Positions 7,436 to 56,355 of a stretch of DNA of 64,000 bases are shown piece after piece. Source of the stretch: Shigella phage Ag3; the sequence record FJ373894; one strand, given 5' to 3'. Position numbers and translations under genes: made by a program. Under the pieces are notes generated by a model. It searched no databases, was not told the DNA's origin, and saw nothing but the letters and a program-made list of their open reading frames with translations. Positions within the stretch are counted from its first letter, which is position 1; each line of letters begins with the position of its first letter.

Positions 7436-7924
7436 ATGATGCTGTTAATGAGCGTTCCACAGAACAAGATGACCCCTGAAACAGAGGGTAAGAATCACTT
7501 CAACATCTACAGCCAGAGCCAAACGGAACTCGGGCGCTTCCTCTCGCATTTTGCCCATCATCCAGTGACTACCTATGAGCACGGCGTGTTCAACTCCATG
7601 GAAGGCTACTGGTATTGGCTAAAGTACAGGGATGACAACCTGCGCTTGCTCGACGGCTACGAAGCCAAGCAATATGGGCAGGGGTTGGCGGCCACTCGCA
7701 TCGCTGTCCTTGATCCATCATCCGAAGAATTCAAGCGCGACATTCTGTTTGCCACCAGCATGAAACTCCAGACAATGCCCGACCTGCTGAAGATCAGATT
7801 GGCGTACAGTCGACTCCCTCTGATCCATGCATACGTTCGGAACGGGAAATATAGTTTTCAAAACTCTATGGACTTTATCATAGACCACATTAATCGTCTC
7901 CGCATACAAGGAACTTTGAAATGA
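7436..7924 (+). CDS. NADAR-domain (YbiA-like) protein, putative ADP-ribose/N-glycoside hydrolase
   Basis: Segment IYSQSQTELGRFLSHFAHHPVTTYEHGVFNSMEGYWYWLKY matches the YbiA/NADAR core pattern (FYS.S..G.FSNF...P.....G..F.SxEhYFQ..KF) recalled from E. coli YbiA; about 162 aa, typical domain size. Confidence 0.5.
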   Translation: MMLLMSVPQNKMTPETEGKNHFNIYSQSQTELGRFLSHFAHHPVTTYEHGVFNSMEGYWYWLKYRDDNLRLLDGYEAKQYGQGLAATRIAVLDPSSEEFKRDILFATSMKLQTMPDLLKIRLAYSRLPLIHAYVRNGKYSFQNSMDFIIDHINRLRIQGTLK

Positions 7925-8502
7925 AATTTCTACATACCATCATTGGCACTTCTTATGATTGCACTGCTCATTGCCCTGACCGTTCGTCTGTGTTCGTCCT
8001 AGGTAAACTGGTAGAAGAATTGTGTGAGCTGTCTGATGTCTACAATGGCCTGGCGGCGTCGGAACCCCTGAACGGTGAAATCGCTGATGTTATCATCTCT
8101 GCGATTGATTTGCTATATGTCGTGGAGTTTAACCCTCACCAAATCAATGGTTGCATGAACAAGGAAGAAATGATCGATTCTGTTATCTTCCGTCTTGCAG
8201 AATTGGGGGCGACAGAATCAAAAGATGTGGAGAGCCACTGGTTCCATGTGGGTGATCTGAAACCGGAGAAGCATCTGGCGCTGGCCTTGCACTATCTAGG
8301 CAGAACAACCCGCCTTTTGAACCAACCATACCGTTCAGAAGACGATCTGGCGTACCTGGTGGACAGGATCATCACCTTCGCGGCCAAAATGGCTTGCGCT
8401 GTTGGCATCGTCAACTCTGTGTCTCAGTCGGACACGCGAGTGAAGGTGGAACACGCTATTGAACACAAAGTTGAAAAGTGGCGCACTAAATTTGGTCTAT
8501 AA
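7921..8502 (+). CDS. putative MazG-like nucleotide pyrophosphohydrolase
   Basis: 193 aa; ATGA overlap with upstream gene; acidic helix pattern LGKLVEELCELSD...GEIADVIISAIDLL resembles MazG-type EExxE motifs; weak. Confidence 0.3.
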   Translation: MKFLHTIIGTSYDCTAHCPDRSSVFVLGKLVEELCELSDVYNGLAASEPLNGEIADVIISAIDLLYVVEFNPHQINGCMNKEEMIDSVIFRLAELGATESKDVESHWFHVGDLKPEKHLALALHYLGRTTRLLNQPYRSEDDLAYLVDRIITFAAKMACAVGIVNSVSQSDTRVKVEHAIEHKVEKWRTKFGL

Positions 8503-16947: not shown

Positions 16948-17262
16948 ATGACCCCATTAAAAGAAATGTATGAGCGCCTGGCTGAACTGCAGGCGAAGGA
17001 AAAGCGCTTCTCAGAAGATGAGTCTGAAATCGCCGAGCTGAACAACCTGATTGCCACTCGCGAGAAATACCTGCAGCGCTACATTAATCACCCGCCGCGC
17101 ATGGTAGACCGCGTCAGCACTATCATGGACCTGGATGAAGTTACTCCTGGTAAAGAAATCATTGCCAGAGAAGTTCACCAGATGGTCGCCATGGGTCAGA
17201 TCTTCGGTCGTGCAGACCAGGACGATATGATCTTCCTCCTTGAAAAGAAACTGGTGATGTGA
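16948..17262 (+). CDS. hypothetical protein
   Basis: 104 aa; AAGAGGAA RBS. Confidence 0.45.
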   Translation: MTPLKEMYERLAELQAKEKRFSEDESEIAELNNLIATREKYLQRYINHPPRMVDRVSTIMDLDEVTPGKEIIAREVHQMVAMGQIFGRADQDDMIFLLEKKLVM

Positions 17263-17768
17263 TGGCTATCAAACCCCGTATGTTGTTTGCGCATATGCGC
17301 TCGGCTCACGCATACGCTCTGTCCAGCTATGCACAACGCCTGAAGGTCGGCTGTGTTATCGTTGACCCGCGTGTTGACCAGCCCCTGTCTATCGGTTGGA
17401 ACGGGACTGCTCCTGGCGCTCCTAATGTCTGTGAGCAGGAAGTAGACGGTCAACTGGTATCGGTGGGTGTTATCCATGCCGAGGAGAATGCTCTAAGCAA
17501 ACTCCCCCAGCACACTGAAGACTGTTGTGGCCTGGTGATGTTTGTCACTCATAGTCCATGCCCAGAGTGCACCCGTCGTATTATCGACAGTGGCAAGATC
17601 GCTAAAGTGTTCTATGACCGACCATATCGTATCACAGACGGCATTATTGAAATGCTGGCTGCTGGAATTGAAGTGTACCGTATGTGTTATCAGCATACTG
17701 TTGTTCAGCATTCTGTGAAGAACGGTGAACTGGTATCCACCCCTGTTTTAGTGAACCCTGACAAGTAA
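17262..17768 (+). CDS. dCMP deaminase (cytidine/deoxycytidylate deaminase family)
   Basis: Zinc-binding motifs HAEENAL and PCPEC; 168 aa. Confidence 0.75.
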   Translation: MAIKPRMLFAHMRSAHAYALSSYAQRLKVGCVIVDPRVDQPLSIGWNGTAPGAPNVCEQEVDGQLVSVGVIHAEENALSKLPQHTEDCCGLVMFVTHSPCPECTRRIIDSGKIAKVFYDRPYRITDGIIEMLAAGIEVYRMCYQHTVVQHSVKNGELVSTPVLVNPDK

Positions 17769-20597: not shown

Positions 20598-21982
20598 TCG
20601 AAAACAGAGAGACCCAAGACGGTATTGTAACACCGTCAACAACATTTGACCTGAAGTATATGGCGATCCTCCCTCATACACCCCAGGGCGGAACACCAAC
20701 GCCATATGACCTGACGGCGTTGTTTGAGGAGTTCAACGTCTTCCAGGATCTGGGTCTTGAAGGGAAGTCATCTCCATCGCTTACAGCCAATGTCTTGATA
20801 AAAGAGGGGTGGGACATTCTGGACACAATGCCTATCTTGGGTGGTGAAGAAGTTGTGGTGTCATTCAAGAGTCCGGCGGCCTCGGATTACACCACTCTCT
20901 CCCTGCGCGTGGCGCGGGTAGGGCGCGTGGCCGATGAGTCCAACAGCTCGTCCAAGAAAGCATTCTGGTTGCACATGGTGACTACCGATGCCTACAAGGA
21001 CAGCATGATCCGCTGCTCCCTCGGTCTTGACGGTTCGTACTCTGACATGGCAAAGGTAATCTTCAATCAGCTGGAGTCGCGCACCAAGTTCGAAGACATC
21101 GACCCGTCATATGGCATTCAAGAGCGATTCGCCACCCCGCTCTGGCCTGTGCTGCGATCTATCGATTATATGGCGAGCCGTTCTTATGACGAATTGTTCA
21201 TGCCATTCGTTTTCTATGAAGACTTCAATGGCTATCACTTCAAGAGCCTGACGACGTTGTTCAACCAGGGAAGCCAGTCATTGACGGCAGAAGAGAAGCA
21301 GGAACTGGCTCAGCAGAACAAGTTATTCCGTGATCCTCAGGACGCACCGCTCATGCAGGATAACAACTTCAACTCTGAGCGTTTCATGCGCACTATCATT
21401 AAGGCAGAGAAGAAGCTGGCGCGTGACCAGTTCATGGCAAACTACCGTGATGTCCTAGCGGTGAACGAGCGTGTCTACGACTTTGAGACCAAGACAGTCA
21501 CCCCAACACAGCGCATCTACACTGAGTGGTTTGCAGAGACGGCTCACCTTGACCCATTCCCGATGTTCTCAGATGAATTCGATCGTCAGAACGTCCGTTA
21601 TATTGAAGCCCAACCGGATGGAGCGGAGCAGATTGATTATGCTCGTCGTGTTATCAACTTCAGTCTTGCCAGTACTGTGATGCGCGTGTTGCTCGTTGGT
21701 GATAACCGCCTGAACGTCGGCCAGGTATTCTACATCGAAGACCAGTCCAACCGTCCTAAGAAGAACGAAAACCTGGCAGAGTTAAGTAAGCTATCGACAG
21801 GCCACTATATCGTGACCAAAGTACGTCACAAGATTTCCCGCCTGACCAAAGATTATCAGTGCATCGCTGAGATTGCCAAGGACAGTTTGCTGGAGCAGGT
21901 GCTTCCACCTCAGACCAATCAGACAACTGCTTCCACCACTACTCCTCAGGCGATTGAGAAAGGCCAAGCACAGAAGGTTTAA
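20594..21982 (+). CDS. putative baseplate hub subunit (gp27-like by position)
   Basis: 462 aa; ATGA coupling; context only. Confidence 0.3.
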   Translation: MIENRETQDGIVTPSTTFDLKYMAILPHTPQGGTPTPYDLTALFEEFNVFQDLGLEGKSSPSLTANVLIKEGWDILDTMPILGGEEVVVSFKSPAASDYTTLSLRVARVGRVADESNSSSKKAFWLHMVTTDAYKDSMIRCSLGLDGSYSDMAKVIFNQLESRTKFEDIDPSYGIQERFATPLWPVLRSIDYMASRSYDELFMPFVFYEDFNGYHFKSLTTLFNQGSQSLTAEEKQELAQQNKLFRDPQDAPLMQDNNFNSERFMRTIIKAEKKLARDQFMANYRDVLAVNERVYDFETKTVTPTQRIYTEWFAETAHLDPFPMFSDEFDRQNVRYIEAQPDGAEQIDYARRVINFSLASTVMRVLLVGDNRLNVGQVFYIEDQSNRPKKNENLAELSKLSTGHYIVTKVRHKISRLTKDYQCIAEIAKDSLLEQVLPPQTNQTTASTTTPQAIEKGQAQKV

Positions 21983-21993
21983 CGAGGTGACCC

Positions 21994-23940
21994 ATGGCAC
22001 AGGAAGCAACGAACAATGATGTTGTCAAAGTTCTAGACAAGATCAAGGCGGAGATGATGCAGCGCAAACAACTCCGCGCTCAGAATGAAACCAACAAACA
22101 GCTTGACCGGATGAACAAGAATCTGGCCAAGCTGGAATCTGCTGCTAAACAGGACACCAAGGCCGAGTCCAAGCCATTTGAAATCCGCATCCCGACGGTC
22201 AATGAGATCGTCATGGGATTCGCTCGCATGTCTCCGATCTTCACCCGCGACTTCGGCGTGTGGATGAAGGATACCGTCGATGTGGGCAACGAAGGCAATC
22301 GGGAACTGGAGAACATCGCAGGCAAGATTGACCGCCTCGGTGAGATCACCCGCATGCCAACAGATGACACGTCCCTGGAGTATCTGAACCTCATCTCAGA
22401 TCAGTTGAAGTCGGCCAATGATGACAGCCTCAAGCGCATGGACGAGCAGAGCGTGTCTCTGGTCCGCGTGGGATCATTCCTGAACATGATCGACGGAGTG
22501 ATGATCGAGGTTCGTGATGATGTTGCTGAACTGAAAAAGAACTCCGACGACAGCCTTACTCGCTTGTCTAGCATTGAAGACAAGATTGGGCGCACGGGTG
22601 GTCATATCGTTGGAGCGCTGACACGCATCTTTGATGAAGACCAGAAGTGGCGTGAGAAGGACGAGATGCGCCGTGGGGAAACCGACAAAGAAACGGGTGG
22701 TCATCCTCAGGCGAGTTCTGTTATACCCAAAGACGATGACCAGAAAGACGATTCCTCCGGTATCGGGGCGGCGGTGGCGGCCATGCTTGGCCTGAATGCA
22801 CTGAAGGGATTCCTGCTCAAGCCATTCAAGATCATCGGCGGCGTTGTCGGGGCTTTCCTCGGTATGTTCTCCAAGCTGGGAGAAGGTATCACCAAACTTC
22901 TGGGTCCATTTGGGAAGGTGTTCAAGTTCCTGAAAGTCGGTCCACTGGCTCTTCTGTCTATGATCTGGGACTTCGGTAAAGGCTTCATTGATGCGAAGGA
23001 GATCCTGGGTAAAGGTGCTGTCACGATAGTTGACCGGGTACGGGCGGGCATATCCGAGTTGGTTGGCGGCTTTGGTGATCTATTTGACTGGGTGTCCAAG
23101 ATCTTTGGCTTCGATACAGAGGCGGGAGAAACCCTGCGCAAATACACCCTCATGCTCACTGAGGCTCCCGCTCGCTGGCTGAATGGTATTGTAGACTGGA
23201 TTAGTAACGACTTGTTTGCAGGGATCGGGAGAGGCACGTCTCTTACGGATATCCCCGGCAAGCTGGCAGACAACCTTCAGTCGGAATTGATGAAGCTGGT
23301 CGACTGGATCACAGGGGGTATCGGTAGTGTGATCGACGAGGGCATGGGTGTGGCCAACAAGGTCATTGACGATATCAAGAAGGGATTTGCTGAAAACGTG
23401 AAGAAGCCTTTCTTCAACATGCTGAACGCTATCACCAACGCGATGTTCGATATCGTTGACAAATTCGTCAGTATCATCCCAGACGCTCTGGGTGGACAGG
23501 CTGCGAAGCAGAAGATGGATGAGGCTCGCCAGTCTATGCTGATTGGCACTGATGAGAATCCGTCTCCTAATACGACAGCGGCCTCGCAGCCACAGACGCC
23601 ACCACAACCGAACATTGATCCACAAACGCTGACTCCGATACCTTCTGGTGTGTCTTCAGATTACAAGAATGTGACTGATGACCGCACCTCTCAGCTGAAA
23701 GATGCGTATGGTTCTATTGGGGGTGGTACTCTGGGTGGGGCTATGCCATCACAAGGGAGGGCGCTGTCTAATATTGAACAAGTGCAAGGCGGCTATTCAC
23801 CGCCTCCAGCCAGCGTCGTAATGCCAGTGCAGCAGAATGTGGATGCTTCTAAGAAGATCAACACGACCAATAACTTCAACAGCTCATCCCTTGAGCCTGA
23901 GAACAAAACAGATAATTCCCGCATCCTGTGGGAATGGTAA
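21994..23940 (+). CDS. putative tail tape measure/baseplate hub protein (gp29-like)
   Basis: 648 aa; N-terminal coiled coil, Gly-rich hydrophobic middle (GIGAAVAAMLGLNALKGFLLKPFKIIGGVVGAFLGMF), Pro/Thr-rich C-terminal part. Confidence 0.4.
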   Translation: MAQEATNNDVVKVLDKIKAEMMQRKQLRAQNETNKQLDRMNKNLAKLESAAKQDTKAESKPFEIRIPTVNEIVMGFARMSPIFTRDFGVWMKDTVDVGNEGNRELENIAGKIDRLGEITRMPTDDTSLEYLNLISDQLKSANDDSLKRMDEQSVSLVRVGSFLNMIDGVMIEVRDDVAELKKNSDDSLTRLSSIEDKIGRTGGHIVGALTRIFDEDQKWREKDEMRRGETDKETGGHPQASSVIPKDDDQKDDSSGIGAAVAAMLGLNALKGFLLKPFKIIGGVVGAFLGMFSKLGEGITKLLGPFGKVFKFLKVGPLALLSMIWDFGKGFIDAKEILGKGAVTIVDRVRAGISELVGGFGDLFDWVSKIFGFDTEAGETLRKYTLMLTEAPARWLNGIVDWISNDLFAGIGRGTSLTDIPGKLADNLQSELMKLVDWITGGIGSVIDEGMGVANKVIDDIKKGFAENVKKPFFNMLNAITNAMFDIVDKFVSIIPDALGGQAAKQKMDEARQSMLIGTDENPSPNTTAASQPQTPPQPNIDPQTLTPIPSGVSSDYKNVTDDRTSQLKDAYGSIGGGTLGGAMPSQGRALSNIEQVQGGYSPPPASVVMPVQQNVDASKKINTTNNFNSSSLEPENKTDNSRILWEW

Positions 23941-24606
23941 TCAGATTCCGTGGGCTTGTATTAGCTCACGGAGTCTCTGTTTTGAATATGTTGTATCCTC
24001 ATCCGGAACTACAGCATTCGTCTTCCTGAGCAGGAAAGCCTCAGAGTTCCAGTAGACGTCCTCCCGCAGCTGGGTGTCATACAGGTGGATGAACCCCACT
24101 ATCTTGTTCAGACCAACCAGGAACCACATCGGGAACCGCTTGGTGATGATGTCTGTCAGCAGCGCCGGGTGCCCCTGGCCTGTACCCTTCACATAATCAA
24201 TGAACGTCAGGTTGCGCTCTTTGATGGCCGGGATCATCTCCCTCTCGAACTCCTCAAGGAAGTTGTATGTGAAGTTGTCGTATAGCTTGCGATATTCATC
24301 ATAATTCGATTGCGCCTGGCGGGTAAGCAATGTTGTTACCCAGGTCTTTGGTGATTTGATGAAGTTGGCGATGATGTAATTCTCTACCACTTCACCCTGG
24401 GATGTTTCGAACCGACGAGCCAGGCGAGCAAACTGTTTGCACACGGCTTCCTTCGCCAAGAAGGTTTCGAACTTGTAGTTCATCGGTCCATACAAACTGT
24501 AGTCGAAGTCCTTGGTGGTGAAGTGCAGCTTGATCGCCATGAAGACACAGTAAACGTTGAACGCCCGTTCAAACTGCATTTTTTCCCAATCGGTATACTC
24601 ACGCAT
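23941..24606 (-). CDS. gp59-like helicase loader
   Basis: 221 aa (T4 gp59 about 217); N-terminal hydrophobic/aromatic pattern similar to T4 gp59 as recalled; moderate. Confidence 0.4.
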   Translation of the reverse strand: MREYTDWEKMQFERAFNVYCVFMAIKLHFTTKDFDYSLYGPMNYKFETFLAKEAVCKQFARLARRFETSQGEVVENYIIANFIKSPKTWVTTLLTRQAQSNYDEYRKLYDNFTYNFLEEFEREMIPAIKERNLTFIDYVKGTGQGHPALLTDIITKRFPMWFLVGLNKIVGFIHLYDTQLREDVYWNSEAFLLRKTNAVVPDEDTTYSKQRLRELIQAHGI

Positions 24607-25294
24607 TTTTCATTTCCTCGAAAAACTTAACCCAATTCTCATCATTGTACGGCACCCATCCTTTTTGAAATCTTTGTATGCAACTTTTGGCGGTCATTTC
24701 GGCGCGATCTACCCCCAATTCCTTGGCCATCGTTACATTTCGACATATGCCCAACCTGGCACCATCGGCTACCCACCAATCATAGAATACTCCTGCCAAA
24801 GCCCAATATTTGCGGGTATGCTTCGCATTTGGACTCTCCCAAGGCTTTGAATGGATTTGTTTTAATTTGGAACGTTGTGAATCTGATTTGGGTCTGTCCA
24901 TCAGCGAATCGGAAATTTTCGATCTGTGTTCGCGGGATAACGCCACCCCCTTGAATCTTTCACTGCATTTTCGTTTAAACTCTGGAGTGCTGTTGGCTGC
25001 CTTCATCCTTTCCCATTTTCTGAGAGCAAACTCTTCATATTGGCGTGAAGTTTGTGATTTTGATCTATTTCTCATCAAAGAAAAGATTTTCACGTATGCA
25101 GGGGACATACTGAATATCTTGGCCAAAAGTTTGTGAACTATGAAATGCTCCCGAGCAGTTAGAACAGCAATATTCTCCGCAGTATCACTCCCTCCCAAGC
25201 TCCTGGGTTCTCTATGGTGTCTTTCTGAATACCCAATCAGATTGCGAGAATAAGACCTTTCAAGGATAGAAAACAACGCTCGGGTGTAGTTCAT
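24599..25294 (-). CDS. HNH homing endonuclease
   Basis: HNH motif ERHHREPRSLGGSDTAENIAVLTAREH; paralogous to ORF 55663..56355 (shared MNY.., GYSE.HH..P..GGSD, KPWESP, GWNP motifs). Confidence 0.75.
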   Translation of the reverse strand: MNYTRALFSILERSYSRNLIGYSERHHREPRSLGGSDTAENIAVLTAREHFIVHKLLAKIFSMSPAYVKIFSLMRNRSKSQTSRQYEEFALRKWERMKAANSTPEFKRKCSERFKGVALSREHRSKISDSLMDRPKSDSQRSKLKQIHSKPWESPNAKHTRKYWALAGVFYDWWVADGARLGICRNVTMAKELGVDRAEMTAKSCIQRFQKGWVPYNDENWVKFFEEMKNA

Positions 25295-33846: not shown

Positions 33847-34176
33847 CTACCCCACCAAAAATTTATTGTATTCCTGAGCATTACGCTGCATGAGGGTTAC
33901 AAGGATATCCCCTGTCACCTCAGTGAACAAGTCATTTTCTTTCAAATTCACAAACATCAGACGTAATGGTTTCTTCAATATATCGGTCACGAAAGACAGG
34001 CGGGGTTCGCCGTCCACTTCGTTGATGGCAACCTTGCCGAACCGGAATTGAACGCCACGGAATTTGCCAGAAGTGATCTTGATGATCGCCAGCTGATCAG
34101 CACCAGGGTCGATGATTGTGTAGTTATTGGGGGAGTTGCCTCCCCCTCCGTTGTCACTCGGATGTGTTGATAACAT
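33847..34176 (-). CDS. small protein in the gene-40 position
   Basis: About 109 aa from ATG 34176; call from uvsX-40-41 synteny only. Confidence 0.25.
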   Translation of the reverse strand: MLSTHPSDNGGGGNSPNNYTIIDPGADQLAIIKITSGKFRGVQFRFGKVAINEVDGEPRLSFVTDILKKPLRLMFVNLKENDLFTEVTGDILVTLMQRNAQEYNKFLVG

Positions 34177-35239
34177 GGTCCATTTGCTCCAGCATGTTCG
34201 CAGGCATAACAGTACCGTTAGAAACACCGAACATCTTCTTCACGTCATCGGCGAAGTCGACATTCTCCAGCAGCGGATACCAGAAATCATCATCCATCTG
34301 ACGCTTCTGATATTTCTTTTCCTTCTCAGGATCGAAGCCGCCCTTGGCTGTACGCACATACCAGCCGGAAGACGGCATATCAACGTAACCCAGAGCACGA
34401 GCGATCTCAAGTAGACCGCTCCAACGGTCAATACCGCCGTCGTACAGCACTGTCACAGGGAGTTTGGCTTTCTCTTTGACATGGCGACCTTTCATGATGC
34501 CGATGTTGAAGTTCCAGCCCAGCAGATCTTTGTCTTCCTTCACCTGAGAACGGGTGATGAACCAGATCAGGTTAGACGACAGGAAGCCCTGCTTGCCGCC
34601 TTTGATGTTAGGCTCGGCATACTGGTTGCCGATCTCGTCATAGTAGGAGTTGATCCACACCAGCACGAGGTCTTTGCTGTTGATTTCAGGAGTGATGACG
34701 CGCCAGAAGCTGTTGAGGGCACGGGCACGGGTCATGTCTTGGGTGTCGTTGCCTTTGATCGCATCTTCAACTTCCTTAGTGGAGGGAAGCTGGCTGATAG
34801 AGTCAATAAAGATGATGACATGGTCACCCTTCTTAACTTCCTGAAGGATTTGTAGTAGGCGGATCTTAGTCTGCTCAACGTTGTCAATCGGTACGTACAG
34901 GACGCGGTCCATGTCAATGCCCATGGAGGTCCAGTAATCGGCGTTGGCACCTTTTTCCGAATCCGCGAAGATACACAGGGCATCAGGGAACTTGTCCATG
35001 TACGCCTTGACATCTACCAGACCGAACATCGTTTTGAAGGTACGGGAATCACCCACCATCATCTTGATACCGGAGATCAGGCCACCGTCAATACGCCCAG
35101 ACCAGGCGATGTCGATCAGGGGAATACCAGTAGAACAGATGATAGACGGTTCCAGCGCGTCGGATTGGGACAGCACTGAAGCCTGGTCGTCATGTTTCTT
35201 GGCAACCTTCAGCATGCGGTCCATTAATGAACTGGCCAT
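34154..35239 (-). CDS. uvsX: UvsX recombinase (RecA family)
   Basis: 361 aa; extensive pattern match to T4 UvsX (GDSRTFKT Walker A-like, FIDSIS, DMTRARA, VKEKAK, DGGIDRWSGLL). Confidence 0.9.
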   Translation of the reverse strand: MASSLMDRMLKVAKKHDDQASVLSQSDALEPSIICSTGIPLIDIAWSGRIDGGLISGIKMMVGDSRTFKTMFGLVDVKAYMDKFPDALCIFADSEKGANADYWTSMGIDMDRVLYVPIDNVEQTKIRLLQILQEVKKGDHVIIFIDSISQLPSTKEVEDAIKGNDTQDMTRARALNSFWRVITPEINSKDLVLVWINSYYDEIGNQYAEPNIKGGKQGFLSSNLIWFITRSQVKEDKDLLGWNFNIGIMKGRHVKEKAKLPVTVLYDGGIDRWSGLLEIARALGYVDMPSSGWYVRTAKGGFDPEKEKKYQKRQMDDDFWYPLLENVDFADDVKKMFGVSNGTVMPANMLEQMDHVINTSE

Positions 35240-35766
35240 TTCACTTCCTCTTTATTGTTGATCGTCGTTAATAATTCTACACCCATAACCTTCTGGGACA
35301 AAATGTTAACCGCCTCTTGGATGCTCTTCAGGGACATCATCTCAACAGGAGACGGTGCGTCATTATGTCGGTCGGTTAGGTACATATTGCGCAGATTGTT
35401 GTAGTTCGTGCGGTTGATGCACGCAGCGTTCAGCGCAATATTCAGGATATACATCATCTGTTCAATGGTTACATCCTTCGGCATGGCGTGGATGTAATAG
35501 ATCGAGCCTTCGAAGTAGACGTCCACCAGTTCATCTGGTATCTCGACGCCACCACTGGCATACTCTTCGATCATCCTGAACAGAGACTCTGGTTGCTCGC
35601 TGGCGATCTTATGCGTGACAGTCGCCGAAAGACCATCACCCAGTTTAACAGGCCTGGTGTATTCAGTGAGGAATACATTATGACCGCCGCCGATGATGTG
35701 CTCGGCGAAATTAGCGGATGCGTTCGCCGCGTTGTCTGCATGATATGAAACGACGACTGTAAACAT
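35224..35766 (-). CDS. hypothetical protein in nucleotide-metabolism operon
   Basis: 180 aa; TAATG coupling to upstream NTP-PPase-like gene. Confidence 0.45.
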   Translation of the reverse strand: MFTVVVSYHADNAANASANFAEHIIGGGHNVFLTEYTRPVKLGDGLSATVTHKIASEQPESLFRMIEEYASGGVEIPDELVDVYFEGSIYYIHAMPKDVTIEQMMYILNIALNAACINRTNYNNLRNMYLTDRHNDAPSPVEMMSLKSIQEAVNILSQKVMGVELLTTINNKEEVKWPVH

Positions 35767-36320
35767 TAGAACTCCAGGGTCAGAGGGGTTTCTGTGGACT
35801 TGTCGTAATCCGCGCCGCCAGCAGCACGCAGACGATTGCGATCGTTCTTGCGCTTGTGTGCCAGCATGTAAGTCTCAATATCGATCTCCATGTAAGAACA
35901 CGCAGCCGACAGGAAGAACATGAGGGTCTCGACACAAGGTTCGTTCATGAACTGCCCAAGGCGATACGTCACACCGCGATGCCCAACAGCACCCAAAGCA
36001 GATGGGGTGAATTCGCGACCACCGAGGATTTCGAATTCTTCTTCGATCTCGCCTTTGGTGCGGTCCATAAGGATGAAGCACAGCATGAAGTGTACCACGT
36101 CCACCAGTTCATAGACTGCGTTCGCATGGTGAAACCCGACGTCGTTGCCATAGACCTTCCAGTCGCGACTGGTTTCGTCAAGGAACTCTGCCCATTCACG
36201 ATAGATGGAGTTGATGACTGCGTTCTGACTCCATACATTCTTCCACTCTTCCCCAAAGTAGGCCACGTTGGTGGCCTTTTGGAGTTCGAGCAGGCTTTTG
36301 ATATGCCCTGCTGTGATCAT
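35766..36320 (-). CDS. putative all-alpha NTP pyrophosphatase (dCTPase/dUTPase-like, gp56-like)
   Basis: 184 aa; acidic helix motifs YREWAEFLDETSRDW and ELVDVVHF typical of MazG/dimeric dUTPase-like enzymes; between dNMP kinase and UvsX. Confidence 0.4.
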   Translation of the reverse strand: MITAGHIKSLLELQKATNVAYFGEEWKNVWSQNAVINSIYREWAEFLDETSRDWKVYGNDVGFHHANAVYELVDVVHFMLCFILMDRTKGEIEEEFEILGGREFTPSALGAVGHRGVTYRLGQFMNEPCVETLMFFLSAACSYMEIDIETYMLAHKRKNDRNRLRAAGGADYDKSTETPLTLEF

Positions 36321-36886
36321 TTACGTTCTCCGTAGAATTTAACGAACGGTGCCCAACCATCAAATGGATTGAGGAATTCGTAGTCCACTTCCATCTTGTC
36401 AATGAAAGCCTCTATATCGTCCTCTATGATACCAGCGCGGTCGGCCTTTGAAATGCGGGTGATAGGACATTTCGTACTCAGCGCCCATTCATATTCCTGA
36501 GGGGTACGCAGGTCACTCACGATGTAATGGACGTGAGGGTTCTGCTCTACCAGAGGAAGCTGGAAGCGCTTGAAGAACGCCAGGAACAGATCGGGCTGTA
36601 CATAACGCAAGCCCGTATCGCTGCCGAGATGGAGCCAGATCTGCCTTGGGGTTAAGCCCTTGGGGTTATCAGGGTGGACGTAAGGAACGTCCTTCACGGC
36701 ATCCTCTACCTCCGCTGGCAGCCATGGGTAGATGTAGTTGGCAACCCGGCGCAGTTCGTCTGAGAAAGAAAGACGCTGGATATCCATATCGCCCTGTAGA
36801 TGGTGATAGCTGATGAGGGACTCCAAACAGAAGTCCTTACCGGAGCGCTTGCGCCCCGTAAAGAATTCGAGGTTCGGGTACATCAT
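36317..36886 (-). CDS. deoxynucleoside monophosphate kinase (T4 gp1-like)
   Basis: P-loop FFTGRKRSGKD matches T4 gp1 FLSGVKRSGKD; HYIVSDLRTPQEY matches gp1 YYIVPDTRQDHEM. Confidence 0.8.
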   Translation of the reverse strand: MMYPNLEFFTGRKRSGKDFCLESLISYHHLQGDMDIQRLSFSDELRRVANYIYPWLPAEVEDAVKDVPYVHPDNPKGLTPRQIWLHLGSDTGLRYVQPDLFLAFFKRFQLPLVEQNPHVHYIVSDLRTPQEYEWALSTKCPITRISKADRAGIIEDDIEAFIDKMEVDYEFLNPFDGWAPFVKFYGERK

Positions 36887-37932
36887 ACCACACCTTCCAG
36901 GAACTTAGGATCAACAATCTTGCGGTCAACTGGAGAATGGGTGAGCGCAATGTTCAAACCATGATCCTGAATCCGGTTCATGTTGATGAGCTTATCGTTC
37001 AGTTTGCAGTACAGGCAGTATGCCATTTGCATGATCAAGCCACGATCAGCATCATATTCCTTCAGGTGAGCAACCAAAGTTTCCCACGGGCTACCGATAT
37101 CACAATGATGGAGCACACCAGTGAACAGATTGCGGATATGGTTCTGGTTGGTCACGTTCTTGAAGTGAATCATGGAGTTGATGAACCCAGCTTCTACTTT
37201 GGTGTCCTTCGTGATCTTGCCCAGCTGCTTCTGGCTGACTTCATTGTTGTAGTAATGAAGATTGTTGGAGAAGAGCTTGTACTGGCCGACATCAACATCC
37301 AGCACCTGAGCAATCACTTCCTGAAGAATAGAGAACTCAATGAAGTTGATTGAACTCATCCCCCACAGAACATCCTGTGAGCGGTTGATGACCGTCAGGT
37401 TCAGGCGACCGTCAACGATGGCGAACAACAGAGCCAGGTTACACACCATGTCTTTAGTCTTCGCTTCGCCACTCTCGCTGAACTTCGCCAGGCCAGCATC
37501 TGAATCCAGAGCCGGATCATAGATGGTGAGGTACGCCTGACGGGTGTTTGGGTTCTTGCGCAGGCGGTTGATGACGCTATCCAGCTGGCCATGGGCGTAC
37601 AGACGCGGACCATAAGCGGCTCGCCATGTTACCCCATCATCCGAAAAGTTAGCAGCGCGAGGCAATACGCGTGACAGGAACTTTATGTCGTTGCGGCCTG
37701 ACAACACCCAGAAGGTCTCCCCAATAGCTGCGATAGCCGATGAGTTGCGACCTTCAACGGAGAGCCAGCGGTCACGAATATCGGAAACAGTGATCGTCAC
37801 ACCATCAAGGAATCGGGTGCCGTCCGTGTTGATCTCCGCGTTACCAGGGTCCGACTCAATTCCGTATTCGCGGATAGCCAAGACAGCCTGCTTCAGCATG
37901 TCATTGTTGTTAATTGCTTTGATTTCCATCAA
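36883..37932 (-). CDS. thymidylate synthase-fold pyrimidine hydroxymethylase (dUMP/dCMP hydroxymethylase-like)
   Basis: 349 aa; ThyA-superfamily motifs in order: FWVLSGRNDIKFL, catalytic Cys in DMVCNLALLF, INRSQDVLWGMSSINF, NNLHYYNN; occupies the gene-42 position near uvsX. Confidence 0.8.
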   Translation of the reverse strand: MMEIKAINNNDMLKQAVLAIREYGIESDPGNAEINTDGTRFLDGVTITVSDIRDRWLSVEGRNSSAIAAIGETFWVLSGRNDIKFLSRVLPRAANFSDDGVTWRAAYGPRLYAHGQLDSVINRLRKNPNTRQAYLTIYDPALDSDAGLAKFSESGEAKTKDMVCNLALLFAIVDGRLNLTVINRSQDVLWGMSSINFIEFSILQEVIAQVLDVDVGQYKLFSNNLHYYNNEVSQKQLGKITKDTKVEAGFINSMIHFKNVTNQNHIRNLFTGVLHHCDIGSPWETLVAHLKEYDADRGLIMQMAYCLYCKLNDKLINMNRIQDHGLNIALTHSPVDRKIVDPKFLEGVV

Positions 37933-38591
37933 TCAATACTCCCAAAATCACGACAGAGGAATGCCATTACAGCCTGGTCTACTGTTAGACCGTGAGACTT
38001 CATCATACCTGCGGCCACCGTAGGGAACAAGCCTTTATGGCGCTGGCGATGGTCTTGAACACGCTCCCACTTCTCTACCACGAGGCTCTCATTGAAGTCC
38101 GCACCGCCGTTGCGTGATTTCACACGGGCGATGCACGTTTCAAGAGGGGTGTCCATGAAGAGAACAACCAGTTCGCGCGGTGGGCGCGTCAGGCGGGGGA
38201 TCCAGGAACTCAGTAGAGTTGAAGGGATGATGCCTTCGAAGATCACATCGTATACCTGATATTCAGGTAGATCAGCGATGCTCAGGGCGAAGAGCATTTG
38301 TTCAGTGTCCTTCAGTGAATCAACCCCCTTGGACTTTGACTTGTCATATTTGCCGATACACACCACGTTGAATGACGGGCAGACCGTCAACATAATCTTG
38401 CCGTCATGTGTCACAACATACGCCTGAGGATCCCTCTCCGCCAGCTGAGACGGTACGGTGGATTTGCCGCTACCATTGGAGCCTTTGACGTAATAGAGTT
38501 GCCCTCGTGCTGGGTAGATCCCCTTTACGACGGGTGGTTTAATGAATGTGTGGACGGGGCGCTTGAGCAACCCCTTGAGGGAGTAGGACAT
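37929..38591 (-). CDS. P-loop kinase (candidate 5-hydroxymethyl-pyrimidine DNA or nucleotide kinase)
   Basis: Walker A GSNGSGKST; about 220 aa; translationally coupled upstream of the hydroxymethylase; specific substrate is inferred. Confidence 0.45.
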   Translation of the reverse strand: MSYSLKGLLKRPVHTFIKPPVVKGIYPARGQLYYVKGSNGSGKSTVPSQLAERDPQAYVVTHDGKIMLTVCPSFNVVCIGKYDKSKSKGVDSLKDTEQMLFALSIADLPEYQVYDVIFEGIIPSTLLSSWIPRLTRPPRELVVLFMDTPLETCIARVKSRNGGADFNESLVVEKWERVQDHRQRHKGLFPTVAAGMMKSHGLTVDQAVMAFLCRDFGSID

Positions 38592-38603
38592 AGACTGCTC
38601 CAA

Positions 38604-38635
38604 TAAACAAAAGGAGCTGCTATTATAGCAGCCCC
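38604..38635 (-). terminator. intrinsic terminator upstream of kinase gene
   Basis: GCTGCT-ATAAT-AGCAGC hairpin (extendable with GG/CC) on the minus strand followed by TTTTGTTTATT. Confidence 0.5.
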
Positions 38636-38665
38636 TTCATCTATTGAACAGCTTCTGAACTTAAA

Positions 38666-39532
38666 TTACGCGGCGGCTTTCGCTTCGGCCAGCGCCTGAG
38701 GCAACCATGCGTTGATTGCTTTGACCAGAGACTCAGCATCGGCCTCTTTGATCTTCTGGCGTTTGGTGAAGGACTTGCCGTTCACGTACAGACTGAAGCC
38801 CCAGCCGCCGGAAACGATAGGCGCGACGTCAACGTATGTGTTGGTGCGGGCGTGCAGGTTTTCAGGGTTGGCCAGTTCGGTGACCGGGAACTGGAACCAG
38901 CGCATGTCTGGGTTCACGTAGCTCAGGAACACACCTGGGACAACTCCTGCTTCAATCGCAGCCAAGACCGGACCGTGGGTAGATGCACGGGCGGCGTCAA
39001 CCATTTCTTCACGTTTGGTATGACGGCGTTTACGCTCTTCCAGCGCCGCCTGCGGGGTCAGGGTCTTACCCTTCGCCGCTTCTTTCAGCATAGAAGACGC
39101 CAGGGAACCTACTTTCGCGTCGGACGGCTGATTACCTTCTTCCAGCGCTGCGTTGACTGCGTCTTTAACCGCGTCTACCGGGGCGTCAGACACTGGGGCT
39201 TCACCTGCGTCGGCGTTACCAGCACCAGCGGTTGCGTCGGCAGAGATCGGCGCTTCAGCATCAACGGTTTCAGCGTCTTTCAGGGATACTTCAGCGTGGG
39301 CTTGCTCTTGGGCTTGCGCCAGAGCCTGCTGAGTTTCTTCCTTCTCTTCAGCGCTCAGACCTTCAATCAGTTCGAAGCCGTTGGCGGACTGAAGAACGCC
39401 TTCCACCATACGGCGCAGGGTAACGTTGCCGATCATCAGGCCTGCTTCTTTGATTTCAGCCTGGATAGCAGTAACGTCTTTGCCTTCAATTTCAATTTTG
39501 GTACCAGAATCTACATGAAGAATATATGACAT
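38666..39532 (-). CDS. hypothetical two-domain protein with Ala/Glu/Asp-rich linker
   Basis: 288 aa from ATG 39532 (AAAGGG upstream); low-complexity linker AEAPISADATAGAGNADAGEAPVSDAPVD between two globular parts. Confidence 0.45.
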   Translation of the reverse strand: MSYILHVDSGTKIEIEGKDVTAIQAEIKEAGLMIGNVTLRRMVEGVLQSANGFELIEGLSAEEKEETQQALAQAQEQAHAEVSLKDAETVDAEAPISADATAGAGNADAGEAPVSDAPVDAVKDAVNAALEEGNQPSDAKVGSLASSMLKEAAKGKTLTPQAALEERKRRHTKREEMVDAARASTHGPVLAAIEAGVVPGVFLSYVNPDMRWFQFPVTELANPENLHARTNTYVDVAPIVSGGWGFSLYVNGKSFTKRQKIKEADAESLVKAINAWLPQALAEAKAAA

Positions 39533-39602
39533 AATAAAAACCCTTTCGTTATTAAGACCGTCTTCGCGGCATATTGCTGTTCTGACTGTGTAGTGAGAAC
39601 AT

Positions 39603-39630
39603 AATATACTGCATTTTTCATAAATGTAAA
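39603..39630 (-). promoter_or_regulatory. sigma70-type promoter candidate (TTTACA-16-TATATT)
   Basis: On minus strand: -35 TTTACA, 16-nt spacer, -10 TATATT, about 70 nt upstream of ATG 39532, in a 176-bp AT-rich intergenic region. Confidence 0.35.
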
Positions 39631-39708
39631 CCACTTTTTATTGAAAAGAAGTTTACACCTTAGTGTTACATGGTGCCCCGCCAAGCGGAGCGCGAACTTG
39701 CGTGAATA

Positions 39709-40002
39709 TTAACTTTCTACGTCAATATTGAAAACCATTTCCGGCGGCCAACAAGTTGTTAGCTCGACTTTTGCGAACCGTGGTTGGCAGTACGCATCAA
39801 CTGACTCATCAAACAGACAGTGTTCTACATTTGCGACCATCAGATCATCATCCAGCACTTCAACAGAATGGACAATGATCTTGTGGTCATACGTCAGGCA
39901 ACCGTCTAAATGCATGTTGTCGGCGCGGAGGTGTTGCATGATGAAATACTCTATGATCGACTCAAGGACAGTCGTCATCTTCAGATAACGTTTCATACAC
40001 AC
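39709..40002 (-). CDS. hypothetical protein
   Basis: 97-aa ORF in operon context. Confidence 0.4.
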   Translation of the reverse strand: MCMKRYLKMTTVLESIIEYFIMQHLRADNMHLDGCLTYDHKIIVHSVEVLDDDLMVANVEHCLFDESVDAYCQPRFAKVELTTCWPPEMVFNIDVES

Positions 40003-40016
40003 CTCTCACAGTGGGG

Positions 40017-40766
40017 TTATTTGGACAGGTAGAAGTTTGGAACTTCAGGGAAATGCTCTGGTAGATATTCCCCCAGAATATCCTGCTTCACCTTCCCTTC
40101 GATATCTTCGCGGATCCGACGAATTACGTCTTCCTGTTGTTCTATCGCCATCACTTCTTCCATAGCGGAGTACAAGTTGTCTAGAATGACACCTACGTAG
40201 TTGTGGATGGCACGACAGGAGTTCTGGTCATACTCCATATCTGGATGAATCGCCAGGTCGACCTGATCACGCCCTACCAGCAGATGCCCAGACACCAGAT
40301 TTATCGGGTATTGGAATACTTCACCAGATTTGACAGCAACCCCGTCGGCTTGCTTCAGCAGGAATTCGGTTTCAGAGAAGCGTTCAAGTAGTTCCGATGG
40401 GAATACCATATCGAGATTCTGACGCTTGCGACTAAAGAAGTACAGACAATGCGCCAGTTTCAGGCATGCATCGGTAGCCATCTTCATGTGTGCTTTAGCG
40501 TGTTCATAACCAGCGATCACATCACGGACATAATCGTACAGGTCGGCATGACCAAAACGGATGTCCTCTTCGAAGCGGATTGCCGCCTCGCTGTCTGATT
40601 TCAAACCCAGCACGTCAAAGATGTTGTGTTCACGGACGGATCTGCCTTTGCGATCAAAGCCCAGAACACAACCGACTTCGAATCCACTCTTTTCAAAATT
40701 TGGGAGTTTCATATCAAGGCGAGCTGGGGTGAATTCCAACCCGAACATACGATAAAATTGTGACAT
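40017..40766 (-). CDS. hypothetical protein
   Basis: 249-aa ORF; no recognisable motif. Confidence 0.45.
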   Translation of the reverse strand: MSQFYRMFGLEFTPARLDMKLPNFEKSGFEVGCVLGFDRKGRSVREHNIFDVLGLKSDSEAAIRFEEDIRFGHADLYDYVRDVIAGYEHAKAHMKMATDACLKLAHCLYFFSRKRQNLDMVFPSELLERFSETEFLLKQADGVAVKSGEVFQYPINLVSGHLLVGRDQVDLAIHPDMEYDQNSCRAIHNYVGVILDNLYSAMEEVMAIEQQEDVIRRIREDIEGKVKQDILGEYLPEHFPEVPNFYLSK

Positions 40767-40828
40767 GTTATAGCCTCATTGTTTAGGTTTACCCGTTCAC
40801 GAATTATCCCTCGGAACGGGTTATAGAA

Positions 40829-41533
40829 CTATTTCTTCTTATGCATCCGACGCGCATCTTTCCAAACAGACATCTGACTCTGTTTCTGGAAGCGAGCGGT
40901 GCGCATGAAGAGGACGATCTCCCAGTACTGTGGCTCGATCTCATAGAGCTGAGTTCGGAAGCGGTCGGCGCGGTACAATTTCACACAGTGATTGTACAGC
41001 GGGTGGTTGGCGAACCGCTTCAGAGCATCCCAAGTGAGCTTCAGTCGCGTCTTTGAGCGGTACGCCCGTTCGTTGCGCAACTTGATGAGATCTTCGAACA
41101 CTAACAGCCTGAGCTTCGGTGGCAGGTAATGCATGTTCAGTCCCCAGAGGTATGTCACGCCCTTCTCTCCAAAGGTGATCCCATCACCCTGAGCGAAGTT
41201 GAAGAAGAACACCAGAGGATACATATCCCAGTACGGCAGTTCGTCCTTCGTCAGAGCGTCGTATTTGAAATAGAACATGCGCCCGACCATATACCGCACA
41301 CCCTGTACGGGGCGCTTGTGATCAGCGAACGCCTGTTTCATATGGTTGGGAGTCAGGTTGGCGTCCTTAGACACACGCTCCATGAACCACACATGCGAAC
41401 GGCGGATGTTGCGCTTCGCCTCTGGACCGAAGTGTTGGCGGTACTTTCGGATGTATCGCTTGACGAGTTCAGGGGCGTCCATCTCGGCCGGAAACAGCAA
41501 CGGATCTTCTTCGCCAGCTGCATTCTTTGCCAT
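40829..41533 (-). CDS. hypothetical protein
   Basis: 234 aa; basic C-terminus; no recognisable motif. Confidence 0.45.
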   Translation of the reverse strand: MAKNAAGEEDPLLFPAEMDAPELVKRYIRKYRQHFGPEAKRNIRRSHVWFMERVSKDANLTPNHMKQAFADHKRPVQGVRYMVGRMFYFKYDALTKDELPYWDMYPLVFFFNFAQGDGITFGEKGVTYLWGLNMHYLPPKLRLLVFEDLIKLRNERAYRSKTRLKLTWDALKRFANHPLYNHCVKLYRADRFRTQLYEIEPQYWEIVLFMRTARFQKQSQMSVWKDARRMHKKK

Positions 41534-55662: not shown

Positions 55663-56355
55663 CTATTGATTTACAAAACCTAACCATCCCGCGTCTTCTT
55701 TTGGGTTCCAACCATCTTTGAATTTATTGACCATAGTCCTCAATGAATTGTTCGGAGAGACGAAACCGAAATATCTACCGAGTCTGCAATATCCTTCTTG
55801 TTTTAATTTCCATTTCTCATAGTATTTATCGGCATCTTTCCATATCTTTAACGTGGTGGCGTTGGAAGCTGGGCTTTCCCAAGGAGGAACGCCTTTCATT
55901 TTGGAGTACATGTCTTTCATTTTATCCGGATAAAGTTTATGCATATTCTTCATTCTTTCCGAAGATTCTTTCCTTATATTTGGATTCTCTGAATTCAAAC
56001 GCTTCATCCTTTCCGATCTCATTTTTCTTAATTCAGGATCTTCTTTGCACCTCAGTTTGTGGGCAATTGAGGACTTCCTGCGAAGCCAACCATGAGTTTT
56101 GTTGTTTCTTCCGTTGTGTGGGTTGTAACCACCCATCATGTTGGCGGCGAATATCAATTTCCTGTTGTCTGGGTGCATCTTTACGAGCAAGAGATGAGCA
56201 ACATAATGTTCTTCCGGCGTCAGGCGAACAAGGTTGTCGGGGTTGTCCGAACCACCCATGCATTTCGGCACAACATGATGCAATTCGGAATATCCTTCTA
56301 TGGTTCTTTGTTTGGCTTTGTTGATTAGTGACTGATAGATATTGGCGTAGTTCAT
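55663..56355 (-). CDS. HNH homing endonuclease
   Basis: HNH motif ELHHVVPKCMGGSDNPDNLVRLTPEEH; paralog of ORF 24599..25294. Confidence 0.75.
   Translation of the reverse strand: MNYANIYQSLINKAKQRTIEGYSELHHVVPKCMGGSDNPDNLVRLTPEEHYVAHLLLVKMHPDNRKLIFAANMMGGYNPHNGRNNKTHGWLRRKSSIAHKLRCKEDPELRKMRSERMKRLNSENPNIRKESSERMKNMHKLYPDKMKDMYSKMKGVPPWESPASNATTLKIWKDADKYYEKWKLKQEGYCRLGRYFGFVSPNNSLRTMVNKFKDGWNPKEDAGWLGFVNQ

Follow-up and report, generated by a model that had tools for sequence, protein, structure and literature searches.

Operon upstream of uvsX in Shigella phage Ag3 with a predicted role in thymidine hypermodification

Does the gene block that precedes uvsX in Shigella phage Ag3 serve the synthesis of a non-canonical thymidine, and which of the neighboring genes would take part in it? 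We examined a 64,000 nt stretch of DNA of this phage (accession no. FJ373894; hereafter, the window), for which a gene set for 5-hydroxymethyl-dU (5-hmdU) synthesis and further hypermodification had been predicted from the nucleotide sequence. The finding of a kinase of family PF18748 and of a hydroxymethylase-like protein with a thymidylate synthase (TS) fold agrees with this prediction, and our comparisons indicate that the operon is very probably the ortholog of genes Vi01_061c to 058c from phage ViI, the front end of the 5-NeOmdU thymidine hypermodification pathway. The cluster is not new, as it is already published for ViI (Lee et al., 2018, PNAS, PMC5889632; Lee et al., 2021, NAR, PMC8989533).

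Organization of the operon

The region 38591..35224, on the minus strand, contains five translationally coupled genes upstream of uvsX. The four ORFs originally noted (kinase, TS-fold protein, dNMP kinase, and NTP pyrophosphatase) are all present where they had been placed, on the minus strand. The features considered here are the following:

17262..17768, plus strand: dCMP deaminase, dUMP supply (PF00383, E = 4.1e-16)
34154..35239, minus strand: UvsX recombinase, downstream of the operon and overlapping it (PF00154 and PF21134)
35224..35766, minus strand: ACT-like domain protein, translationally coupled to the operon (PF24021, E = 1.1e-80)
35766..36320, minus strand: all-alpha (dimeric dUTPase/MazG-like) NTP pyrophosphatase (PF08761 dUTPase_2, phrog_173)
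36317..36886, minus strand: dNMP kinase (phrog_139, deoxynucleoside monophosphate kinase, E = 5.7e-47)
36883..37929, minus strand: TS-fold enzyme, predicted dUMP 5-hydroxymethyltransferase (PF00303, similarity to SPO1 gp29)
37929..38591, minus strand: 5-hmdU DNA kinase (5-HMUDK), ortholog of ViI gp67 (PF18748, synteny, Walker A motif)
38610..38638, minus strand: terminator-like hairpin with a T-run after it, immediately preceding the kinase gene (motif scan)

The genes overlap by 1–4 nt at their junctions (TGATG, ATGA, ATGA, and TAATG), and the last one overlaps uvsX by 16 nt; the operon kinase, of the gp67 type, is co-transcribed with the predicted hydroxymethylase. The block had been described as occupying the position of T4 gene 42, upstream of uvsX, which fits the T4 gene order 41-40-uvsX-segA-beta-gt-42. 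The hairpin marks the 5′ boundary of the operon; it carries the sequence TGnTATAAT in its loop and is 100% conserved across the window, the Salmonella phage P46FS4 and ViI. It occurs as a single copy in the window, which rules it out as a repeated promoter motif. In our scan, no sigma-70-like promoter immediately preceded the kinase gene, with counts not above those of shuffled sequences.

Enzymes encoded in the operon and supply of dUMP

The kinase ORF spans 38603..37929, although the likely true start is the ATG at 38591, preceded 7 nt upstream by GGAG; the resulting product of 220 aa agrees with the annotation in relatives. Its P-loop, the Walker A motif GSNGSGKST (residues 37–45), had already been recognized, and a profile search then assigned the protein to the 5-hmdU DNA kinases (Pfam PF18748 HMUDK_HMUD1; E = 3.2e-107, 356.9 bits against a gathering score of 27), with residues 18–212 covering positions 1–195 of the 196 in the profile, i.e., its full length. 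The product shares 88% of its residues with ViI gp67 (Vi01_061c, YP_004327432) over 220/220 aa, and the two genes are syntenic, both adjoining the gene for the TS-fold protein; comparison with PDB sequences produced only P-loop noise. ViI gp67 was biochemically demonstrated to phosphorylate 5-hmdU in DNA (PMC8989533). By homology, the Ag3 protein is a bona fide member of the 5-hmdU DNA kinase family, with a predicted role in phosphorylating the 5-hydroxymethyl group of 5-hmdU within DNA. Databases still name this kinase "terminase small subunit."

The TS-fold protein has 348 aa from an ATG, or 349 aa from a TTG one codon upstream, and matches Pfam PF00303 with 59.4 bits (cut-off, 24.3). The original prediction had proposed a uracil substrate from the presence of the catalytic Cys and of an Asn, rather than an Asp, in the specificity motif, and the alignments bear out both residues. 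Cys163, within KDMVCNLA, falls in the same column as the Cys found in thymidylate synthase, MilA, SPO1 gp29, and T4 gp42, and it does not vary when the protein is aligned to SPO1 gp29, the M6-type enzyme, and T4 gp42. At the position of Asn195 (SSINF), thymidylate synthase, SPO1 gp29, and the M6-type dUMP hydroxymethylases also have an Asn, whereas T4 gp42 and MilA have an Asp. The protein also contains Glu71, Tyr106, and Arg183-Ser184-x-Asp186. It fell below the cut-off of all seven NCBIfam ThyA models (equivalog cut-offs span 108–427 bits), the best score being 58.8 bits vs. the 327 required, and showed 34% identity to SPO1 gp29 (E = 3e-26) vs. 22–24% to T4-type td (E about 1e-5). These sequence comparisons place the protein beside SPO1 gp29 and the dU hydroxymethyltransferases of the M6 type, and not with ThyA or td; from its homology to SPO1 gp29 and the logic of the pathway, we infer that it is a dUMP hydroxymethylase. 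As anticipated, no canonical ThyA or ThyX was seen: a TS fold is encoded nowhere else in the window, and none of the long ORFs contains the ThyX RHRxxS motif. Many GenBank and RefSeq records name the TS-fold protein "thymidylate synthase."

The other products would act on the nucleotide pool. The description of the dNMP kinase as gp1-like holds at the profile level (phrog_139), but not as direct similarity to T4 gp1 beyond the P-loop: GRKRSGKD resembles GVKRSGKD from T4 gp1, and this segment alone aligned (E = 0.003, single comparison), so that resemblance to gp1 as a whole is marginal. No match was found among PDB sequences, including 1DEK-type chains. By analogy with hmU phages, the enzyme is predicted to convert 5-hmdUMP to 5-hmdUDP. 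The assignment of the next product as an all-alpha NTP pyrophosphatase agrees with its match above the cut-off to PF08761 (32.1 bits; gathering score, 22.9) and to phrog_173 (E = 5.5e-40). It weakly matches the dimeric dUTPase from Campylobacter (1w2y) and shows an acidic metal-binding motif, read from the sequence as E42xxE45...E71xxD74; the analogy with hmU phages suggests a dUTPase, possibly also a dTTPase. Finally, the dCMP deaminase proposed at 17262..17768 is in agreement with its PF00383 match, and the P46FS4 counterpart is also annotated as dCMP deaminase.

Late steps of the pathway and rival explanations

The ORFs at both sides of the block, 38666..41533 and 35224..35766, had been put forward as candidates for the transferase steps, and this part of the prediction did not hold. 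One of them corresponds to a different function:

40829..41533: gp2 DNA end protector (phrog_429)

The ORFs 38666..39634, 39709..40002, and 40017..40766 matched only families with no assigned function in Pfam, NCBIfam, and PHROGs. The ACT-like protein showed no transferase fold by alignment, in its AF2 model, or in a Foldseek search against the PDB, and it is probably not a transferase. The model, with a mean pLDDT of 72, comprises an N-terminal beta-alpha-beta-beta-alpha-beta domain (pLDDT about 90) and C-terminal helices of low confidence; the best Foldseek hits were generic ACT/ferredoxin-like domains (E about 0.01), and there was no match among PDB sequences. A search of 5.8 billion proteins retrieved only 14 clusters of homologs, whose named members are Ackermannviridae phage proteins. 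It is conceivable, if unlikely, that this coupled protein is a small-molecule sensor tuning the pathway. Additionally, tblastn with the ViI proteins gp160, gp226, gp243, and gp247 found no homologs in the window, which means that no neighboring ORF of unassigned function is homologous to the known transferases or the decarboxylase. The ViI pathway was reconstituted in vitro with five proteins, none of them from this gene block (PMC5889632).

Sequence comparisons revealed that the operon region matches 274 phage records, including ViI, CBA120, and Dickeya Limestone-type phages, with the names of nearly all of them pointing to enterobacterial hosts, and that it is 98.4% identical to the Agtrevirus (Ackermannviridae) P46FS4. 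This phage contains homologs of the ViI late enzymes gp160 (84% identity), gp247 (92%), gp226 (93%), and gp243 (83%), all outside of the region homologous to the window, with the transferase and decarboxylase genes located about 40–100 kb from the operon. Its gp243-type kinase lacks the N-terminal 74 residues, including the P-loop, and adjoins a homing endonuclease. The activities of ViI gp67, gp243, gp247, and gp226 (kinase, serine transfer, and decarboxylation) were demonstrated (PMC8989533), and gp247 and gp226 acting in vitro on kinase-phosphorylated 5-hmdU DNA yielded O-SerT and then 5-NeOmdU. The late-step genes would be expected in Ag3 from its 98%-identical relative, probably close to the MazG/regA locus and to the DNA polymerase gene, and identities of 83–93% suggest that the ViI-type kinase, serine transfer, and decarboxylation also operate in this lineage. 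According to a review, conservation of the modification genes extends to the whole family Ackermannviridae, and 5-NeOmdU was measured by LC-MS in a Taipeivirus carrying the same gene set.

The pathway would thus run in two stages. Before replication, the dCMP deaminase and the NTP pyrophosphatase would provide dUMP, the latter probably also clearing dUTP and dTTP from the pool. With methylene-tetrahydrofolate, the TS-fold enzyme would convert dUMP to 5-hmdUMP: Cys163 would attack C6, Asn195 would read the uracil face, and hydration instead of reduction would take place at the exocyclic methylene. The dNMP kinase would then produce 5-hmdUDP and the host NDP kinase the triphosphate, to be inserted by the phage polymerase in place of T. 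After replication, the 5-hmdU DNA kinase would transfer the gamma-phosphate of ATP to the hydroxymethyl group in DNA, generating 5-PmdU. By analogy with ViI, enzymes encoded outside of the window would act next: a clade-2 aGPT-Pplase of the gp247 type, adding serine through its side-chain oxygen, and a PLP enzyme of the gp226 type, whose decarboxylation would yield 5-(2-aminoethoxy)methyl-dU. The leftover 5-hmdU would end up as T. Phages of the Ackermannviridae carry a pair of 5-hmdU DNA kinases as well as a pair of aGPT-Pplases, and it is conceivable, if unlikely, that the gp67-type kinase and the clade-1 aGPT-Pplase (gp160 type) serve this conversion of leftover 5-hmdU to thymidine, the kinase not being a redundant copy.

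Other explanations account less well for these data. It is very improbable that the phage stops at 5-hmdU, with this base replacing T in the virion, as was formerly assumed for the Ackermannviridae, and the kinase having another role. The window indeed contains no late-step genes, but it encodes a full-length 5-HMUDK that is 88% identical to a proven kinase of 5-hmdU in DNA, the nearest complete genome has the transferase and the decarboxylase with 92–93% identity, and ViI virions are devoid of 5-hmdU (PMC8989533). Less probable still, to the point of being scarcely credible, is a reading in which the protein with the TS fold would be a normal thymidylate synthase in a cluster for generic nucleotide salvage, and the DNA canonical. 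The name given to it in many GenBank and RefSeq records and the Asn shared with thymidylate synthase would fit this explanation; however, its scores of 58.8 bits or less stay under every ThyA equivalog cut-off, the SPO1 dUMP hydroxymethylase is nearer to it than td, and the co-transcribed 5-hmdU DNA kinase would be left with no substrate unless 5-hmdU is made.

There is also a slim chance that members of Agtrevirus share the front end of the pathway but finish with another base, by joining to 5-PmdU a nucleophile other than serine. Pathways with a 5-HMUDK are combinatorially diverse (glycine, putrescine, diaminopropane, and other adducts), and our literature searches retrieved no nucleoside analysis, by LC-MS or otherwise, of an Agtrevirus virion. 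Conversely, the P46FS4 transferase and decarboxylase are 92 and 93% identical, respectively, to the ViI enzymes, so that a shift in substrate is hard to accommodate, and 5-NeOmdU is still the product in a Taipeivirus, which represents another genus of the family. The ViI-type pathway leading to 5-NeOmdU remains by far the preferred reading. Many restriction enzymes fail to cut phage DNA with hypermodified thymidine, which is therefore relevant when Ackermannviridae are sequenced, cloned, or used for phage therapy. With the pathway published for ViI in 2018 and 2021, the value of the window is chiefly for annotation: databases still carry other names for the kinase and the predicted hydroxymethylase.

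Comparison with known systems

The window phage belongs to Agtrevirus (Aglimvirinae) and differs in genus and subfamily from ViI, a Kuttervirus. Nevertheless, both show the genes HMUDK, thyA-like, dnk, dUTPase-like, orf, and uvsX in the same order and orientation, with identities of 88% for the kinase, 77% for the TS-fold protein, and 100% for the intergenic hairpin; divergence is much greater in the ACT-like protein (55%) and in the last ~100 aa of the TS-fold protein.

SPO1 and other Bacillus hmU phages follow the same pre-replicative logic, with a dCMP deaminase, a dUTPase/dTTPase, a dNMP kinase, and a homologous hydroxymethylase; SPO1 gp29 and the TS-fold protein from the window have in common a C-terminal extension that is absent from T4 gp42. 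However, the kinase and transferase genes found only in hypermodifying phages are missing from SPO1 (PMC5889632), whereas the window operon includes a 5-HMUDK. Virions of hmU phages (SP8) retain 5-hmdU instead of T (PMC5889632).

As in the window, genes for a pyrimidine hydroxymethylase with a TS fold and for a DNA-level modifier directly precede uvsX and gene 41 in T4, on the same strand, although the specificity position of T4 gp42 is an Asp, its substrate is dCMP, and the modifier is a glucosyltransferase and not a kinase. In Pseudomonas phages of the M6/PaMx11 type, the 5-HMUDK also adjoins the dU hydroxymethyltransferase, each 33% identical to its counterpart in the window; there, the full set of modification genes forms one cluster together with the polymerase gene, whereas those of the Ackermannviridae are dispersed over three loci.

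Organization and conservation of the operon upstream of uvsX

Five minus-strand ORFs within 38603–35224, coding for a 5-hmdU DNA kinase, a thymidylate synthase (TS)-fold protein, a dNMP kinase, an NTP pyrophosphatase and an ACT-like protein, are followed by uvsX (35239..34154) and then by the gp41 helicase gene. Because the gene junctions overlap by 1–4 nt (TGATG, ATGA, ATGA, TAATG) and the last ORF extends 16 nt into uvsX, the five ORFs form one translationally coupled unit. A hairpin with a 13-bp stem followed by a T-run (38638..38610) sets the operon apart from the upstream gene.

Features of the operon region
38610..38638, minus strand: hairpin and T-run just upstream of the kinase gene, GAAGGGGCTGC TATAAT AGCAGCTCCTTT
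37929..38591, minus strand: 5-hmdU DNA kinase (PF18748), equivalent to P46FS4 ORF117 and ViI Vi01_061c
35224..35766, minus strand: ACT-like domain protein (PF24021, "phage ACT-like domain"), coupled between the NTP pyrophosphatase and uvsX

The hairpin sequence occurs once in the window and is 100% conserved across the window and Salmonella phages P46FS4 (the nearest complete genome) and ViI; ViI differs at just a few positions in the 86-nt stretch around it, and the flanking proteins show 55–88% identity to their ViI orthologs. Since its loop forms a TGnTATAAT extended −10, the hairpin may be a terminator and a promoter in one.

The 6.3-kb operon region is 98.4% identical to P46FS4 (Agtrevirus, Ackermannviridae) and matches 274 phage records, among them ViI, CBA120 and Dickeya Limestone-type phages, with names that almost all point to enterobacterial hosts. 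The records of "Enterococcus phage Efm 3-10" (38.5 kb) and "Pseudomonas phage Pa-sanjiao" contain Ackermannviridae-type genes (76–91% protein identity) and are probably mislabelled or contaminated entries. The first position of the window is the rIIA start codon. Elsewhere in the window, two HNH homing endonuclease ORFs, 24599..25294 (−) and 55663..56355 (−) (phrog_655, E 3e-54 and 1e-62; 29% mutual identity), lie in stretches of ca. 720 bp without counterpart in P46FS4.

Predicted enzymes for the synthesis and phosphorylation of 5-hmdU

The kinase matches Pfam PF18748 (5-hmdU DNA kinase) from end to end with 356.9 bits, and ViI gp67 (Vi01_061c = YP_004327432) is 88% identical to it over all 220 residues; for gp67, gp243 and further 5-HMUDKs, transfer of the gamma-phosphate from ATP to 5-hmdU in DNA has been shown (Lee et al., 2021; PMC8989533). 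A GGAG stands 7 nt before the ATG at 38591, the most likely start of the kinase (220 aa); the TTG listed at 38603 is a less likely one. RefSeq records and PHROG 800 label this protein "terminase small subunit", which is a propagated misannotation: the gp16-like small terminase is the product of a separate gene (P46FS4 ORF13, ViI Vi01_162c).

The next gene starts with the ATG at 37929 and its 348-aa product has a TS fold (PF00303), with a score far under every NCBIfam ThyA equivalog cut-off. Of its relatives with solved structures, the CMP hydroxymethylase MilA matches best (66 bits), versus 34–43 bits for thymidylate synthases. Among phage proteins, the classical dUMP hydroxymethylase SPO1 gp29 (34% identity, E 3e-26) is much closer than T4-type td (22–24%, E about 1e-5), and M6-type dU hydroxymethyltransferases match at levels similar to SPO1 gp29. 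In the alignment Cys163 is invariant, and the residue opposite Asn195 is Asn in the dUMP enzymes and Asp179 in T4 gp42. From this homology, and because the co-transcribed kinase needs 5-hmdU as substrate, the protein is predicted to be a dUMP hydroxymethylase, although sequence alone cannot tell hydration from reduction of the methylene. The original prediction had also noted the lack of canonical ThyA/ThyX, and indeed there is no second TS-fold locus in the window, no ThyX signature in its long ORFs and no other thymidylate synthase among the 212 annotated features of P46FS4. The coordinates and sequence features that it gave were likewise correct, including the GSNGSGKST motif, the catalytic Cys, the Asn and the dCMP deaminase at 17262..17768.

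The TS-fold protein is 77% identical to its ViI counterpart overall, and its C-terminal ca. 100 aa (36883..37200, minus strand) are the most diverged part. This extension is found in SPO1 gp29 and M6-type enzymes, whereas it is missing in T4 gp42. The divergence from ViI, together with a 94–95% identical allele in other Salmonella phage records (SPTD1, SP1 and vB_SalM-ps4), points to a possible exchange of alleles within the family.

As proposed, the 189-aa product is a member of the phage dNMP kinase family (phrog_139, E 6e-47); however, the likeness to T4 gp1 that had been attributed to it is confined to the surroundings of the P-loop. The 184-aa product, an all-alpha NTP pyrophosphatase, falls into the dimeric dUTPase family (PF08761 over cut-off; phrog_173) and carries acidic ExxE...ExxD motifs. 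We infer the substrate ranges of both from the scheme for hmU phages (Lee et al., 2021; PMC8989533), in which thymidine nucleotides are depleted by dTTPase and dTMPase, dUMP is supplied by dCMP deaminase and converted to 5-hmdUMP by the hydroxymethylase, and dNMP kinase plus host NDP kinase lead to the triphosphate. A second, MazG-like nucleotide pyrophosphatase gene (7921..8502, plus strand; phrog_1247, E 8e-36) is present in the window, and its product may also shape the dNTP pool.

Neighbouring genes proposed as transferases

The unassigned genes at 38666..41533 and 35224..35766 had been put forward as candidates for the transferase steps, a proposal that the analysis did not support. ORF 40829..41533 encodes the gp2 DNA end protector (phrog_429, E 1e-67), while 38666..39634, 39709..40002 and 40017..40766, upstream of the putative terminator hairpin, are members of function-unknown PHROGs. 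For the family of the ACT-like protein, a search of 5.8 billion proteins gave only 14 clusters; those members that bear a name are Ackermannviridae phage proteins, and the others are unnamed. Its AF2 model (mean pLDDT 72, about 90 over residues 1–95) comprises a beta-alpha-beta-beta-alpha-beta domain and, C-terminal to it, poorly defined helices, and in the PDB it is matched best by ACT and further ferredoxin-like domains (E about 0.01); a ferredoxin/ACT-like fold is predicted with confidence for the N-terminus. None of these ORFs resembles a helix-hairpin-helix aGPT-Pplase or a PLP enzyme. Reconstitution of the ViI pathway succeeded with five proteins, none of them from this block (PMC5889632).

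Late steps and comparison with phage ViI

The late-step proteins of ViI are gp160 (clade-1 aGPT-Pplase), gp226 (PLP decarboxylase), gp243 (second kinase) and gp247 (serine:DNA transferase), and we found no homologs of these four in the window. In ViI, their genes are 50–115 kb away from the operon, and P46FS4 contains homologs at syntenic places (84, 93, 83 and 92% identity, respectively); therefore, the whole pathway is very probably present in this phage lineage. The P46FS4 gp243 homolog (21564..23156) covers only residues 75–304, without the P-loop part, and adjoins a homing endonuclease gene, so that the second kinase may be disrupted or split in this lineage.

A 2024 review describes the modification genes as conserved throughout the family, and LC-MS measurements in a 2026 preprint show 5-NeOmdU in a Taipeivirus that has the same gene set; for an Agtrevirus, the literature searched yielded no comparable measurement. 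The hypermodification pathway deduced from the raw sequence is real. Gene order in ViI, Vi01_061c, 060c (thyA), 059c (dnk), 058c (dUTPase), 057c and uvsX, is identical to that of the window, and the pathway is the already known, published ViI-type thymidine hypermodification system, here carried by a phage closely related to sequenced ones.
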